Of a DNA stretch of 64,000 nucleotides, positions 28,701 to 56,739 are shown piece after piece. The notes under the pieces are model-generated. The model saw only the letters and a list, made by a program, of their open reading frames with translations. It did no database searches and was not told where the DNA came from. The position numbers were made by a program, and so were the translations under genes. Origin of the DNA: Gammaproteobacteria bacterium (GTDB lineage: Bacteria > Pseudomonadota > Gammaproteobacteria > Eutrophobiales > Eutrophobiaceae); the NCBI GenBank assembly GCA_011772965.1, contig WVYN01000050.1:155029-219028 (forward strand). The letters are read 5' to 3'. Position 1 is the first letter of the stretch. Each line of letters starts with the position of its first letter.

Positions 28701-29813
28701 ATGATCATTATCCTGCATCCTGATACCGACCAGTCTGCTGAGCCTTACAAAAAGCTGGTCGAATATCTCGATACATTGCCGGGCATCAGATACCGAACCC
28801 ATGAAGTTCTCGGTGCTCAACAGAGACTGACCGAGCTTTATCTGATAGGTGATACCTCGACCCTCGATTCAGAAATGATGGAGAGCTTTGAGGTGGTCGA
28901 GCGCGTGGTTCGTATTTCCCGCGAGTACCGTGTCCTTGGCCGTCACAAGGATGACCAGCGCTCGGGTGAATTTACCTATAATGGTGTGTGCTTCTCACAG
29001 GATAATCTGCATCTGTTTGCCGGTCTCTGTGCGGTCGACACGCGAGAACATGTCGAACTCATGTTTAAACACCTGCAGGCCCATGATCAGGTTTGCGCAC
29101 GTATGGGCGCTTACAAACCACGGACGAATCCTTACTCATTCCAGGGGCATGGCCAGTCGTGCCTGCCATATGTTTTCGAACTGGCCGGTCAATACGGAAT
29201 CAAGGTTATCGCCATGGAAATCACACACGACGATCAGATCCAGGAAATACGTGATGCACTGGCTGACTCTGGAAATCCAACTGGGGTGATCTTGCAAATC
29301 GGGACACGAAACATCCAGAATTTTGAATTATTGAAAAGCGTCGGGCGGCAGCAGGAGTATCCGGTGCTTCTCAAGCGTGGTTTTGGTATTACCCTCGAAG
29401 AATCATTGAATGCGGCTGAGTACCTCGCCAGCGAAGGCAATCGCAGGGTCATTTTTTGTTTGCGGGGCATGAAGACCAACATGGGTGATCCTCATCGTAA
29501 TCTCGTGGATTTTGCCCATGTACCCGTCATCAAGCGCATGACCCACATGCCGGTTTGTATAGATCCCTCGCATTCTGTCGGCAACCGACTGTCATCCCCG
29601 GACCATCTTATGGACGTCATGCATGTGACGGCACAGGGTATCATTGCCGGCGCCAACATGGTGTTGGTGGATTTCCATCCTGATCCCACCAAGGCTTTGG
29701 TGGATGGTCCTCAGGCATTGCTGCTGGATGAACTGCCATGGTTTATTGAAGATATGCGGATTGCCCGAGAAGCCTATGAAAAGCGTGCATCTCTGGCCAA
29801 TCAGTATGTCTGA
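28701..29813 (+). CDS. 3-deoxy-7-phosphoheptulonate (DAHP) synthase, type I-beta with N-terminal regulatory domain
   Basis: KPRTNPYSFQG and CIDPSHS motifs of the KDO8PS/DAHPS I-beta family, plus a ~90-aa N-terminal extension as in Thermotoga/Bacillus-type enzymes. Confidence 0.8.
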   Translation: MIIILHPDTDQSAEPYKKLVEYLDTLPGIRYRTHEVLGAQQRLTELYLIGDTSTLDSEMMESFEVVERVVRISREYRVLGRHKDDQRSGEFTYNGVCFSQDNLHLFAGLCAVDTREHVELMFKHLQAHDQVCARMGAYKPRTNPYSFQGHGQSCLPYVFELAGQYGIKVIAMEITHDDQIQEIRDALADSGNPTGVILQIGTRNIQNFELLKSVGRQQEYPVLLKRGFGITLEESLNAAEYLASEGNRRVIFCLRGMKTNMGDPHRNLVDFAHVPVIKRMTHMPVCIDPSHSVGNRLSSPDHLMDVMHVTAQGIIAGANMVLVDFHPDPTKALVDGPQALLLDELPWFIEDMRIAREAYEKRASLANQYV

Positions 29814-30697
29814 AGCAATACCCGGTCATTTTCAGGAACGGTATCAATATTCCAGTGCTCTATGCCCCAGTTGAGTATTTCCTGGCAAGAGCCATTACGC
29901 AGTTCCGGATCAGGGGATTGGCCCAGGAACATCAGGGCCTGGAAAAGGGTTTTCGCACCGTCCTTGCTGTTAATAGCGGGCGCATGGTTTTGCTTGCTGA
30001 TTTTTTTCCCCTCCTGGTTCAGGGCTACGGGATGATGAACATAGTCCGGTCGTGAATAACCGAGCAATTGCTGCAAATAGATTTGTCGTAGTGTTGAGTC
30101 GAGTAAATCAGTGCCCCTGATAATTTCGGTCACACCCTGCAACTGATCGTCTATTACGGTGGCAAGATGATAGGCAATATAGCCATCGGAACGCTTGATT
30201 ATGAAGTCACCAGACACCTCTTCAAGGCATTGACTGACGTCACCCTGTATCCGATCGATAAAGCGGATTATGCGATCATCAGTTCGTATCCGGAGAGCAC
30301 AGGATTTCCTGTTTCGCTTGATACCCGTGCGACAGGACCCCGGATATGCCCGGCCCTTGGTCTCGCTCCGTGTGCATGAACAGGGGTAAACCAGTTGTCT
30401 GGATTCAAGGTCTGCGAGAATTTCCCGGTAAATGGATATGCGCCGGCTTTGATAGACGACCTCGTCATCCCAGACCATCCCCAATGCCTCAAGAGTGCAC
30501 AGAATGTGCTCGGCGGCACCAGTTTGATTACGTGGTAAATCAATATCATCTATTCTCAGCAACCATTTGCCATGTTGTTTTCGGCTGTGAAGATAACTGG
30601 CCAGTGCCGCAATGACAGAGCCTGAATGGAGGGGGCCTGTTGGTGAGGGGGCAAACCTGCCTACCGAATATTTATTGGTATGTGTTTTTTCCTGCAT
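29801..30697 (-). CDS. gluQ: Glutamyl-Q tRNA(Asp) synthetase
   Basis: 298 aa. RFAPSPTGPLHSGS (HIGH-class motif), colinear with E. coli GluQ(YadB), no anticodon-binding domain. Confidence 0.85.
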   Translation of the reverse strand: MQEKTHTNKYSVGRFAPSPTGPLHSGSVIAALASYLHSRKQHGKWLLRIDDIDLPRNQTGAAEHILCTLEALGMVWDDEVVYQSRRISIYREILADLESRQLVYPCSCTRSETKGRAYPGSCRTGIKRNRKSCALRIRTDDRIIRFIDRIQGDVSQCLEEVSGDFIIKRSDGYIAYHLATVIDDQLQGVTEIIRGTDLLDSTLRQIYLQQLLGYSRPDYVHHPVALNQEGKKISKQNHAPAINSKDGAKTLFQALMFLGQSPDPELRNGSCQEILNWGIEHWNIDTVPENDRVLLQTY

Positions 30698-30720
30698 TGC
30701 CCGGGAGTGCCCGTGCAGAA

Positions 30721-31416
30721 TCAGCCGAGATGACGTTCCTTGATCTCGTCCAGGGTTTTGCAGTCAATACACAGCGTGGCAGTTGGCCTTGCCTCAAGAC
30801 GACGTATCCCGATTTCCACACCACAGATTTCGCAGTAGCCGTAATCACCATTGTCGAGATCTATCAATGATTCATCGATTTTCTTGATCAGTTTCCTCTC
30901 CCGATCCCTGGTCCTGAGTTCCAGTGCAAATTCTTCTTCTTGGGTAGCACGGTCATTGGGATCCGGGAAATTAGCCGCCTCATCACGCATGTGGTGGACT
31001 GTGCGGTCGACTTCTTCCATTAATTCTCTCTTCCAGTTCAACAACAACTCGCGAAAATGATCGGCCTGATCAGGGCCCATATAGTCTTCACCACTCTTGA
31101 TTTTGTAAGGTTTGAAATCACCCTTTTCAACAGGGCTAGTGGTTGCAGACCGGTTCTTCTTGATACTGGATACCTTGTTCATTTTACCCTTAATGGCTGG
31201 CTGTTTCGGCTTTCTGGAAACCTTCTTTTTTGCTGTCTTTTTCTTGGTTATTTTTTTTCTTTTAGTTGTTTTCTTTTTAGCGGTTCTCTTCTTGGACGCA
31301 GGGGCCTTCTTGGCTGTCTTTTTCTTTTTGGCAGCCTTCTTTTTTGCTGTTTTTTTCTTTACAGCAGCTTTCTTTTTAGCGGTTTTTTTCTTCGCCGATT
31401 TCTTCTTTTTAGGCAT
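30721..31416 (-). CDS. dksA: RNA polymerase-binding transcription factor DksA with an in-frame 78-aa Lys/Ala/Thr-rich histone-H1-like N-terminal extension
   Basis: C-terminal 153 aa colinear with E. coli DksA (DEAANFPDPNDRATQEEEFALELRTRDRERKLIKKIDESL, 4-Cys zinc finger CEICG..CIDC). No stop between the K-rich repeats and the DksA core. ATG 31416 has a GGAG SD 8 nt upstream; internal ATG 31182 has a weaker AAGGG. Confidence 0.85.
   Translation of the reverse strand: MPKKKKSAKKKTAKKKAAVKKKTAKKKAAKKKKTAKKAPASKKRTAKKKTTKRKKITKKKTAKKKVSRKPKQPAIKGKMNKVSSIKKNRSATTSPVEKGDFKPYKIKSGEDYMGPDQADHFRELLLNWKRELMEEVDRTVHHMRDEAANFPDPNDRATQEEEFALELRTRDRERKLIKKIDESLIDLDNGDYGYCEICGVEIGIRRLEARPTATLCIDCKTLDEIKERHLG
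31183..31416 (-). repeat. In-frame coding tandem repeat (about 5-6 imperfect 33-nt units encoding KKKTAKKKAAx) forming the DksA N-terminal extension
   Basis: Periodicity visible in both DNA (ctttttNgcNgNtttcttttt units on the plus strand) and protein. Confidence 0.7.
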
Positions 31417-31486
31417 TCTTAAATCTCCGCCCCTAAAAAATAAGCGTGCATCTATACCAGAAAGAAATTAGAGAGGCAACTGAATT

Positions 31487-39290: not shown

Positions 39291-40535
39291 TTATCGCTGT
39301 TTTGCGACGACGACCCTGTTGCGGCCTCCTTCCTTGGCTTTATACAAGGCATTGTCAGCCGCCTTGATGACATCCTGCGGACTACGATGCTTATCAGTCT
39401 TCTCTGCCAGACCGACGCTGATACTGATATTGATGTCTTTAGCTTTGCCCCTGCGTTTTCTGTTCTGGGGTTTTTTCCGGGGCCTGCCTTGATGACGTAT
39501 GGCCAGTTTTTTGTTGGCGATTTTCTCCCTTAATACATCAAGATACAACGAGGCCTCGGAGGCCTCTGTGTTAGGGAACACAAGGGTAAATTCCTCACCA
39601 CCGTAGCGGAAAGGTCTGCCACCGCCGGCAACAGTACGTAGTTGCATTGCCAGCATTTTCAACACATCATCGCCAACATCGTGACCGTAAGTGTCATTCA
39701 GTTTCTTGAAATGATCGACGTCCACCATTGCAATGGAATAATCCCTGCCCAGAGAAAGCAGCTGTTGTTTCAGTGCACGCCGGGATGGCAGCTGTGTTAA
39801 TTCATCCCTGTAAGCAAGATGATAGGCGTGAATAATAATCGCAGTTATCAATATCAGACTGGATATCACAAAATAGATTGATGTGATAATGGGTTCTCCC
39901 GTGAAGTTAAGGCCGATGATCAAGCCCAGCAATGCTAGACCCCATGCACCCCTCAAAAGTCCGGGATTAATATTCTGATGGATCGCAAAAAGGACGAGAC
40001 TGGCCATCCATACCAGTAACAATGGTGAGCCGGCCAGTTTGTTAATGAAATCAGGTTCAGGAATAAAACCCAGGGCAAGAAAAGAAGCAAGAGCAGCCTG
40101 TTTGGATTTGATTAACCAGAAGCAGGCCAGAAATTCAATGCTCAGTATGAAAAGCTTGTTACCACCGTGGGAATTCAACAAGCCACGTTCTTTCATGAAA
40201 TTAAACAGGACAAAGTTTAATGCCAAGACCAGACCTATCAGGTTATACAGTGTGGTCTTGTTGATGTCCTTAGTTTCCGGCCAGAACAGGGTCTGCAGGA
40301 GGATGTAAATGCAGAGCATGGTCAAAAACAGGCAGAACTCCCGGCTGTTATAGAACACAACACAGAGCATTAACGCCAGCACCATAATCAGGTAGGGCAG
40401 CCAGTTAAGTGAACCGGTCAACCAGGTTGGCAATGACATCCAGTTATTGACCATCAATACAGCGGGGGTCATTAACAGGGTAATGACAATCAGTGCGGGC
40501 AGAAATTGCTGTATTCTTTTAGTTATAAAATACAT
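39291..40535 (-). CDS. Membrane-anchored diguanylate cyclase (multi-TM N-terminus plus GGDEF; GGEEF site, no RxxD I-site)
   Basis: About 7 predicted TM helices, then LTQLPSRRAL.., DVDHFKKLNDTYGHDVGD, RYGGEEFTLVFPNT. Confidence 0.85.
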   Translation of the reverse strand: MYFITKRIQQFLPALIVITLLMTPAVLMVNNWMSLPTWLTGSLNWLPYLIMVLALMLCVVFYNSREFCLFLTMLCIYILLQTLFWPETKDINKTTLYNLIGLVLALNFVLFNFMKERGLLNSHGGNKLFILSIEFLACFWLIKSKQAALASFLALGFIPEPDFINKLAGSPLLLVWMASLVLFAIHQNINPGLLRGAWGLALLGLIIGLNFTGEPIITSIYFVISSLILITAIIIHAYHLAYRDELTQLPSRRALKQQLLSLGRDYSIAMVDVDHFKKLNDTYGHDVGDDVLKMLAMQLRTVAGGGRPFRYGGEEFTLVFPNTEASEASLYLDVLREKIANKKLAIRHQGRPRKKPQNRKRRGKAKDINISISVGLAEKTDKHRSPQDVIKAADNALYKAKEGGRNRVVVAKQR

Positions 40536-54492: not shown

Positions 54493-56739
54493 CTAGTCGA
54501 TATTATCCAGGGCCTTGTTTCTGTCATTGGAGATTCCATTTTCAGGAACTGAAGCTTGCTGCGAAGACTGGTCATTTTGCTGGATTTCCACATTTTGTCC
54601 CGGAGTATTAATGGATTCATCCTGATTGATCTGCGCACTAGCATTCCCCTGCAGTTCCCGTTCCGTGACGGCATTTTCAGCTGCTGGATTATTGCCCTGA
54701 TCGGGAATGGCTGTGGTTGTCTCCTGTGCCTGATTTGTAGTCTGCTTATTTTCATTGTCAGCAGGATTAGTGCCAGATGATTTACTGCTCTGCTTGGTCT
54801 GTTTGTCGCGACCACGGCTGGTATTTTCATTATTACGATTACGCCGTCTGCCTCCACGGCGTCCACGTCTTTGTGATTGACCACTGCTATCATCTCCCGT
54901 GTTACTGGCTTTACTTCCGCGTTTACGGGAACGGCCACTGGATTTCTGGTTACGGCCGGGTCGTTTACTATCGCTGGACTTTGTTCTTTTGGAATCAGCC
55001 CTCTTTGTGGTAGTGGTAGTTCTACCTGAACTTATTGTCTCCTGTTTCTCTTCTTCAGGGACGCCAAACAGGCTGCCAAATAATCGGTTGATTAATCCAC
55101 GCGAACTTGTCCGTTTTGGTACAGGTACAGGATGGTCAGGAATGATCTGCTTGATAGCAGGTTCTTCAATACGCCGTTTTTTCTGTTGTTCGATGGACTC
55201 AAGTATAGTGTCTTTTTCTTCCGGTTGTATATCGTAACTGGGACGGGCGTATTCCTTGCTTGCCGCCTCGGACAGCTTGACACGTTGAATCAGGTATTGT
55301 GGAGTTTCCAGGGCAGGTGAGGGGACCAGAATGATGTCAACGTCATGCCGATGTTCAATATTACTGATAGTGGTGCGCTTTTCATTCAGAAGAAAGGTGG
55401 CTGCATCAGTGGGTAACTGTGCTATGACCTTGGCCGTCAGGTCTTTCATTGCTTCTTCTTCAATAATTCGCAAAACGGACAGCGCCAGGGATTCCGTGCC
55501 ACGAATCGTGCCCTGACCCTGGCAGCGCGGACAAAGGATATTACTGGATTCCCCCAACGATGGCCGCAGACGTTGCCGGGACATTTCCAGCAAGCCAAAC
55601 CGGGAAATTTTGCCAATCTGGACCCTGGCCCGGTCCATTTTCAGATTTTCCCGAAGACAATTTTCAACCTCACGTTGGTTCTGGTGACTTATCATGTCGA
55701 TGAAATCTATGACAATCAGGCCACCGAGATCGCGTAATCTGAGCTGACGGGCTATTTCCTCGGCAGCTTCAAGATTGGTATTGAGCGCAGTCTCTTCGAT
55801 ATCACCTCCTGCAGTTGAACGCGAGGAATTGATGTCAATGGTTAAAAGTGCTTCTGTGTGATCGAATACCAGTGCTCCTCCCGACGGCAATCTGACTCCT
55901 CGTGAAAAAGCAGATTCAATCTGACTTTCAATCTGATAACGGTTAAACAGGGGATCCGGCTCATCATAAAGCTTCAGCTTGTGCAGGTTCTGCGGCATGA
56001 CCTGTTGCATGAATTCATAACCTCGCTGATAGACTTCCTTGCTGTCTATCCATATCTCCGATATGTCCTTGCGCAGGTAATCACGTATTGCACGAATAAT
56101 GACTTCACTTTCCTGGTAGATAAGAAAAGGCGCCTTTCGCTCGTTAGCTGCCTTGGTAATGGCATCCCAGAGACTCAGCAGATAATCGAGATCCCATTGC
56201 AATTCGTCGCTGGATTTTCCAACACCGGCTGTTCGCAGAATGATACCCATACCCTGTGGAACATTGAGCTTGCTCATGGCATCCCGAGCTTCATTACGAT
56301 CACTGCCTTCTATCTGTCGGGATACACCTCCGGCACGGGGATTGTTTGGCATCAGAACCAGATAGCGACCTGCCAGACTGACAAAAGTGGTCAGTGCAGC
56401 GCCCTTGTTTCCCCGTTCCTCTTTTTCAACCTGGATGATAAATTCCTGGTCCTGCTTGATAGCTTCACGAACGTTGATTCGACCACCATCTTCAGCAGTA
56501 TCTTTGAACAGGGAGTGGGCTATTTCCTTGAAAGGCAGGAAACCATGGCGCTCGGCACCATAGTCGACAAAAGCGGCCTCGAGACTTGGTTCGATTCGGA
56601 CGATCCGGCCTTTATAGATATTGGATTTTTTCTGTTCCCTGGAGGTTGACTCGATGTCGAGGTCATAAAGTTTCTGACCATCGACCAGAGCCACACGCAA
56701 CTCTTCCTGCTGAGTCGCATTGATAAGCATTCTCTTCAT
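54493..56739 (-). CDS. rne: Ribonuclease E (catalytic N-terminal half plus short Arg/Ser/Asn-rich low-complexity C-terminal scaffold region)
   Basis: N-terminal ~510 aa colinear with the E. coli RNase E catalytic domain (S1 domain, DNase I-like, Zn-link CPRCQGQG). C-terminal ~230 aa low complexity with [13 protein letters not shown] segment. Confidence 0.9.

Follow-up and report, generated by a model that had tools for sequence, protein, structure and literature searches.

The system considered here is a dksA gene with a lysine-rich N-terminal extension in a 64,000-nucleotide (nt) stretch of gammaproteobacterial DNA (assembly GCA_011772965.1, contig WVYN01000050.1, positions 155,029 to 219,028 of the forward strand), which is called the window throughout. 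The closest described systems come from Xanthomonas and Streptomyces. In Xanthomonas euvesicatoria, DksA (XCV2556) was re-annotated from 147 to 256 amino acids (aa) by proteogenomics: the upstream peptide AAPAAAKPAAKPVASK was detected by mass spectrometry, start-codon mutagenesis points to the first GTG, both the full-length product and a shorter 'processed variant' were observed, and the antisense gene XCV2557 opposite the extension was judged spurious and proposed for deletion (PMC5559785). The extension was given no functional interpretation in that paper (PMC5559785), and the term 'N-terminal' does not occur in a subsequent functional study of DksA from X. citri (PMC6804348).

In Streptomyces coelicolor, DdbA (SCO2075) combines a Lys-rich, histone H1-like N-terminal half with a DksA-like C-terminal half. 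DNA is shifted in electrophoretic mobility shift assays by the isolated N-terminal half, and not by the DksA-like half, and the isolated N-terminal half also condenses DNA; overexpression of DdbA suppresses relA phenotypes, and the N-terminal half was described by its authors as streptomycete-specific (PMC3643593). Basic tails are also known from proteins with other functional modules: peptides of the KPAA tail of AlgP bind DNA (PMC9239181), and in Anaeromyxobacter CarD, an RNA polymerase (RNAP)-binding module is joined to an H1-like domain (PMC2919716).

In the window, the dksA frame on the reverse strand stays open upstream of the canonical DksA start for 78 codons, up to an ATG at 31416 that is preceded by GGAG at a distance of 8 nt, as a preliminary description of this DNA had correctly stated. 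Our reading of the locus as a whole, which we consider fairly probable, is that a housekeeping DksA is translated from position 31416 and carries a disordered tail with a net charge of +43 that would bind polyanions, above all DNA. This grading is an overall judgment and not the product of the confidences in its two parts, translation of the long form and DNA as the main partner of the tail. The features that are central to the argument are the following.

30721..31416, reverse strand: dksA long open reading frame (ORF) of 231 aa (ORF and translation)
31183..31416, reverse strand: tail-coding region, codons 1-78, with the ATG at 31416-31414 (composition, disorder, homologue tails, indels)
31306..31392, reverse strand: 33-nt (11-codon) tandem repeat encoding KKKTAKKKAAx, 2.6 copies (Tandem Repeats Finder)
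30721..31179, reverse strand: DksA core, residues 80-231 and the stop codon (Pfam, NCBIfam, alignment, AlphaFold2 model)
30946-30963, reverse strand: coiled-coil tip DPNDRA, residues 152-157 (alignment to E. coli DksA)
30760-30834, reverse strand: four-Cys zinc finger, Cys 195, 198, 216, and 219

Coding status of the N-terminal tail

The tail DNA consists of 54% A and only 8% T, three of its six frames are free of stops, and 3.3% of its mononucleotide shuffles contain no in-frame stop. With so little T, the open frame was rejected as sufficient evidence for coding, and the coding case therefore rests on comparative data. A word-indexed search found over 100 homologues of DksA, 216-285 aa in length, with K/A-rich N-termini that start with M-[PA]-x-KKK. 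As this type of search is biased by the words of the tail itself, the search was repeated with the core only, covering 1.84 billion cluster representatives. Among the 124 best representatives with a recognizable tip motif that were examined, 74 had an N-terminal extension of at least 40 aa, and at least 55 of these 74 extensions were basic (K+R at least 20%, D+E at most 8%), with lengths of 44-300 aa. The check for tails on orthologues that had been proposed with the preliminary description was thus positive, as most of the nearest DksA relatives carry K/A-rich tails. Tailed proteins occur in Alcanivorax and Alloalcanivorax (200-300 aa, Ala/Lys/Pro-rich), in Methylohalomonas lacus, and in many uncultured Gammaproteobacteria, and the tail is absent in Pseudomonas, Aeromonas, Thiothrix, Halorhodospira, Salinisphaera, and Nitrococcus.

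Genomes ranging from 34-71% G+C retain the reading frame, the composition, and the M-[PA]-x-KKK start. Near the canonical start, a Met is missing in at least 24 of 118 tailed homologues, and these depend on the upstream start. The tail is a lineage-wide trait of many Gammaproteobacteria that is kept for its composition and charge and not for its exact sequence.

The closest relatives, whose cores are about 98% identical, are 232- and 237-aa versions of the 231-aa protein in the window, and their tails differ from it by 3- and 15-nt indels only, which bears out the earlier expectation of length variation; all tail indels are multiples of three. A more distant relative, the metagenome-assembled genome (MAG) SZUA-592 (locus L001), has a core that is 91% identical and a tail of 100 aa. 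Relative to L001, the 153 core codons show 76 synonymous and 13 non-synonymous differences, and the 78 tail codons show 19 synonymous and 25 non-synonymous differences. On this codon comparison, the tail evolves faster than the core but keeps its first approximately 45 residues and its composition.

Codon usage adds a further argument. In six of nine tails, A runs do not exceed 6-8 nt, which is less than a random placement of the Lys codons AAA and AAG would give (P = 0.12 for the window tail alone), and the interruption of A runs by AAG codons is a frame-dependent sign of selection against slippery runs. G+C at the third codon position is raised in some tails (L009, L018) of high-G+C genomes, although not consistently, and codon-position G+C was not used as coding evidence because Ala and Pro codons lift the values of the first and second positions.

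In the databases, long forms already carry the NCBI name 'RNA polymerase-binding protein DksA' (for instance, a 277-aa protein of Methylohalomonas and a 242-aa protein from a MAG), and the same genes are called short in some records; for example, the 154-aa entry P0121 shares a cluster with the 247-aa entry P0046. With in-frame tails on homologues and indels of 3 and 15 nt, the proposed in-frame Lys-rich extension is very likely translated, and we are highly confident that the long form from ATG 31416 is made. The novelty of the gene had been overestimated, as such tails are the rule among the nearest DksA relatives, long forms are annotated, and there are published precedents.

The tail, the DksA core, and the start sites

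Residues 1-78 contain 51% Lys, 17% Ala, 10% Thr, and 5% Pro, and Lys accounts for 55% of residues 1-66, so that the initial figure of about 60% Lys was too high. Tandem Repeats Finder detected the 33-nt period (31306-31392) with 83% matches and a score of 111, together with overlapping periods of 14-18 nt and shorter degenerate periods elsewhere in the tail DNA. The 33-nt repeat spans only about 87 of the 234 nt, the remainder being degenerate, and the description of the tail as 'pure' KKKTAKKKAAx repeats must be corrected accordingly. The AlphaFold2 model, calculated with a 50-sequence alignment, has a predicted local distance difference test score below 50 and no secondary structure for residues 1-100, and the 78-residue tail is thus predicted to be an intrinsically disordered polycation. 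It has the properties of the composition-defined class of H1-like or AKP-type basic tails, as it is rich in Lys and Ala, charged, disordered, and encoded by repeats.

The part that follows the tail is a canonical DksA, as originally recognized. Pfam DksA_N (PF21157) matches residues 117-184 (E = 2.2e-33) and zf-dskA_traR (PF01258) matches residues 190-221 (E = 1.4e-11), which corresponds to the DksA architecture, in which the dksA/traR C4 zinc finger comes after the coiled coil. The NCBIfam equivalog TIGR02420 for dksA was passed with 171.3 bits at a cutoff of 115.5, whereas the enterobacterial-type model NF008045 (PRK10778) was missed with 204.3 bits at a cutoff of 289; the latter model has a narrower scope, and a score below its cutoff fits the 60-70% identity to E. 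coli DksA. Residues 92-230 align to residues 11-149 of E. coli DksA (E = 8.5e-56) with a constant offset of +81. In the structure-database alignment, for which the E. coli DksA structure 1TJL and the RNAP complexes 5VSW, 5W1T, 7KHE, and 7KHI were compared, D71, D74, and A76 as well as C114, C117, C135, and C138 of E. coli DksA are all retained. R172, K179, and K220 align with E. coli R91, K98, and K139, which we take to be the residues that form ppGpp site 2, and they are invariant in the 50-sequence alignment. The AlphaFold2 model has the coiled-coil helices at 115-148 and 153-189 and a C-terminal helix. The gene order queF-cysZ-dksA-gluQ is common to the relatives of the window, and the gene is the housekeeping dksA of this organism at its conserved position next to gluQ.

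29801..30697, reverse strand: gluQ, glutamyl-Q tRNA(Asp) synthetase-like (Pfam tRNA-synt_1c), 23 nt downstream of dksA

Between the dksA stop and the gluQ start codon (30698-30720), no terminator-like site was reported, and with this short spacer, gluQ is probably co-transcribed with dksA.

The sequence upstream of the tail and the canonical start position contain the following putative signals.

31451..31479, reverse strand: promoter-like element, TTGCCT (31479-31474), a 17-nt spacer, and the extended -10-like TGgTATAGA (31459-31451) (conservation)
31425..31428, reverse strand: GGAG resembling a Shine-Dalgarno sequence, 8 nt ahead of the long-form ATG, kept in L001, L006, and L082-L087
31180..31182, reverse strand: internal ATG (Met79), aligned with the start of canonical DksA; E. 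coli residue n corresponds to n+81 here

The spacer between cysZ and dksA has 70 nt and contains the promoter-like element, then the G+C-rich tgcacgc, and then a short leader with the GGAG. L001 and L006, the latter having a core that is 69% identical and a genome with 39% G+C, share the block cctttctggtatagatgcacgc without any change, and it is also present in L091 with one differing base just upstream of the block. The promoter-like element is invariant in the close relatives as well. The layout TTGCnn, approximately 17 nt, and TGGTAnAnA recurs upstream of the long start in L002, L003, L005, L007, and L014. This conserved upstream block resembles a promoter of the extended -10 type that has a G+C-rich discriminator, an arrangement that would fit stringent or autoregulated control of dksA, and the promoter function of the element is inferred from its conservation. 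A consensus promoter scan reported no promoter-like site upstream of either start and none inside the tail; that the scan did not flag TTGCCT-17-TGgTATAGA is explained by the last base of the second hexamer, which is A and not T. An Rfam scan of the whole window matched no RNA family, and the conserved leader is therefore not among the described RNA elements.

Several further observations concern this region. Together with a T-rich stretch, cctttctggtatagatgcacgc forms a block of some 30 nt (31441-31479, reverse strand) that is almost invariant ahead of the tailed dksA genes of L001, L006, and L091, where the encoded proteins share only about 69-91% identity and the genomes have 39-49% G+C. 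Seven homologues (P0031, P0033, P0039, P0046, P0050, P0091, and P0108) have been called 6-13 codons further upstream, with starts such as MHAYFL... and MHADFL..., because the conserved leader tATGCACGC contains an ATG that is in frame by chance; these additional N-termini are probably artefacts. In the window, a reading from this ATG meets a TAA ahead of the real start. Opposite the tail DNA, two antisense ORFs (31057..31422 and 31112..31471, forward strand; 121 and 119 aa) encode Phe/Leu-rich products, and they are open because the sense strand contains so little T.

Elsewhere in the window, the only other strongly basic segment of this size lies at approximately 55008, in the long, Arg/Ser/Lys/Asn-rich, low-complexity C-terminal region of an RNase E-like ORF (54493..56739, reverse strand, 748 aa). 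This segment and a basic segment at approximately 39539 in a GGDEF protein (ORF 39291..40535) are unrelated to the DksA tail.

Possible function of the tail and alternative readings

DksA reaches into the secondary channel of RNAP with its coiled coil and forms ppGpp site 2, and the globular domain including the N-terminus remains outside the channel on the rim. In the reading that we favor, the gene product would be translated from ATG 31416 as a 231-aa protein whose C-terminal 150 residues are a standard DksA, and the tail would lengthen and shorten by in-frame indels in repetitive DNA. A tail of 78 residues with a charge of +43 that leaves DksA at the channel rim could reach DNA or another nearby polyanion, and it would bind such polyanions non-specifically, above all DNA. 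DNA binding would concentrate DksA on the nucleoid, or else the tail could let channel-bound DksA touch the DNA beside the polymerase and thereby stabilize or modulate the complex with promoter-bound RNAP. Nucleoid tethering is plausible by analogy with DdbA, AlgP, and H1, and these analogues also incline us slightly toward DNA as the main partner of the tail.

A number of points weigh against this reading. The support obtained here concerns coding status, conservation, predicted disorder, and DksA identity, and DNA binding is taken from the analogues; a Lys-rich tail would bind polyphosphate (polyP) or RNA as readily as DNA. The open frame is weak evidence for coding in such T-poor DNA. The tail alone matched no Pfam family even at E<=10, HC2 (PF07382) included, so that 'H1-like' denotes a resemblance in composition and not demonstrated homology. 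The histone-H1-like tail of the preliminary description therefore stands with respect to composition; membership in the HC2 family is unsupported, and the HC2 scores of the homologues P0093 and P0103 (39.1 and 35.7 bits) are below the cutoff of 40. KPAA units of the AlgP/PhaF type were not found in the window tail, which has only the 5% Pro given above. Halorhodospira, Nitrococcus, Salinisphaera, and Pseudomonas have cores that are about 64-76% identical and yet are tail-less. Moreover, Met79 and its flanking motif are kept in most close relatives, with TAAGG upstream of the ATG in the window, and a short form may therefore be made as well.

A further point against it comes from a variant locus. 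L089 and L090 are contigs of about 1 kb from different samples and metagenome assemblies that encode a close relative of the 237-aa protein P0022 (L091). In both (positions 1-143 of L089 and 1-182 of L090), the promoter and the first approximately 15 tail codons are swapped for unrelated sequence, there is a further internal gap, and stops but no in-frame start are found ahead of the internal Met. Only 43-55 nt separate the junction from the contig ends, a pattern that fits the insertion of a repeated element or another rearrangement, and the variant may thus be a mobile-element insertion or rearrangement in the tail. It suggests that the tail may be dispensable, and if the variant is real, the population would be able to live with a DksA that starts at the internal Met. 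As a clean short gene, P0075 (L089/L090) was rejected since it is a rearranged variant, and P0020 was rejected as a short allele since its contig is cut inside the tail, which is in frame up to the contig edge.

The alternative that survives best is that one gene gives two proteins, a long tailed DksA and a short DksA beginning at Met79, the latter through internal initiation or because a protease removes the tail, so that the cell would hold a tethered and a free pool. We regard this as possible, with odds clearly against it. The canonical start position carries Met in 86 of 118 tailed homologues, compared to 0.37% Met elsewhere in the tails, but these 86 homologues are phylogenetically clustered, the surrounding M-[SN]-K-V-[ST]-S-I is conserved too, so that the Met may just belong to a conserved peptide, and the tailed homologues that lack this Met argue in the same direction. 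The TAAGG 5 nt ahead of ATG 31182 favors a short form, whereas L001, L006, and L007 have no Shine-Dalgarno-like sequence at a usable distance before this Met; AAGAG in L001 and GAAGGA in L006 directly abut the ATG, and L007 has neither. The consensus scan also gave no promoter-like site inside the tail. The processed variant that accompanies full-length DksA in Xanthomonas (PMC5559785) and the L089/L090 variant, in which only the internal Met is usable as a start, speak for two products.

Returning to the tailed DksA as the main product, it is conceivable, although we consider it unlikely, that the tail is made and its main partner is not DNA. The tail could bind polyP (or RNA or ribosomes), or it could act as an element of stability or translation rate, and DksA would then be linked to polyP granules or to the lysine supply instead of the nucleoid. 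AlgP, with its Lys/Ala/Pro tail, localizes to polyP granules and needs the tail for granule spacing (PMC9239181). Strong polyP binding was described for stretches of 20 residues that contain at least 9 Lys, 4 of them consecutive (PMC12077175), and the window tail far exceeds this Lys density. The reference list of the same paper cites a report of DksA regulating polyP accumulation in E. coli (PMC12077175). The short A runs would additionally imply that slippage or stalling on Lys codons matters. On the other hand, DNA is by far the most abundant polyanion near RNAP, and the sole H1-like tail on a DksA-like protein that has been tested, that of DdbA, bound DNA (PMC3643593).

A combination of these two alternatives, which we consider doubtful, would be a two-state regulator in which a long form held by its tail at the nucleoid or polyP and a free short form arising from the internal Met or from cleavage coexist in a ratio set by starvation. 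Starvation would act, for example, via the slowing of ribosomes on the 40 Lys codons or via the accumulation of polyP. If true, the stringent response would receive a second input, in addition to ppGpp, in much of the Gammaproteobacteria.

That only the short DksA from ATG 31182 is made and the upstream frame is an accident of an A-rich, T-poor leader is very improbable: the stop-free frames, the shuffles that stay open, and short records such as P0121 would fit, but the frame, composition, and start motif are conserved over a wide range of G+C contents, all tail indels keep the frame, many tailed orthologues have no internal Met, a promoter-like element and a Shine-Dalgarno-like sequence precede the long start, the short entry P0020 merely reflects a contig cut inside the tail, and the long form was proven experimentally in Xanthomonas (PMC5559785).

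Comparison with known systems

The tailed architecture is widespread and already present in databases, and it forms a large annotated but functionally neglected class with precedents in Xanthomonas and Streptomyces. To our knowledge, almost all mechanistic DksA work uses the tail-less E. coli protein, and long polycationic tails are found on the nearest relatives of the window DksA, a set that spans many gammaproteobacterial lineages and dozens of clusters at 50% identity. Binding of the tail to DNA or polyP would, if it occurs, alter the supply of free DksA for competition with Gre factors over the secondary channel, the chromosomal site of DksA action, and possibly its coupling to starvation. 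There is also an annotation issue, as the same genes are called long or short across records and spurious antisense ORFs are found opposite the tail.

AlgP/PhaF, the C-terminal tails of histone H1, and chlamydial Hc2 resemble the window tail as disordered, Lys/Ala-rich low-complexity regions with variable tandem repeats; these known tails bind DNA, and that of AlgP also associates with polyP granules. In contrast to these, the window tail has neither KPAA units nor a match to Pfam HC2, it is N-terminal and not C-terminal, and it is attached to a different functional module. CarD shares with the window protein the combination of an RNAP-binding module and an H1-like, basic DNA-binding tail, but its module belongs to the unrelated CarD_TRCF family, whose target is the beta subunit and not the secondary channel, and its tail is C-terminal.

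DdbA resembles the window DksA in its H1-like N-terminus and in a DksA-like part with both tip Asp residues and the four-Cys finger. It differs in being actinobacterial, in its (S/T)(A/T)AKK pentapeptide repeats, and in the distance of its DksA-like domain, which has a BLAST E value of 8e-11 to E. coli DksA, versus 8.5e-56 for the window protein. With its streptomycete-specific N-terminal half, its lineage, and its distant DksA-like domain, DdbA is, in a comparison by description, probably the result of an independent fusion.

The X. euvesicatoria protein is likewise a gammaproteobacterial DksA. Its tail, the composition of which we judged from the peptide AAPAAAKPAAKPVASK and from primer-encoded segments, is of the Ala/Pro-rich type of high-G+C genomes and begins at a GTG, whereas the window tail has 51% Lys, contains Thr, and has little Pro. 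In both proteins, the N-terminal extension, which comprises about 109 Ala/Lys/Pro-rich residues in X. euvesicatoria, begins at an upstream start, and in both genes, antisense ORFs are open opposite the tail.

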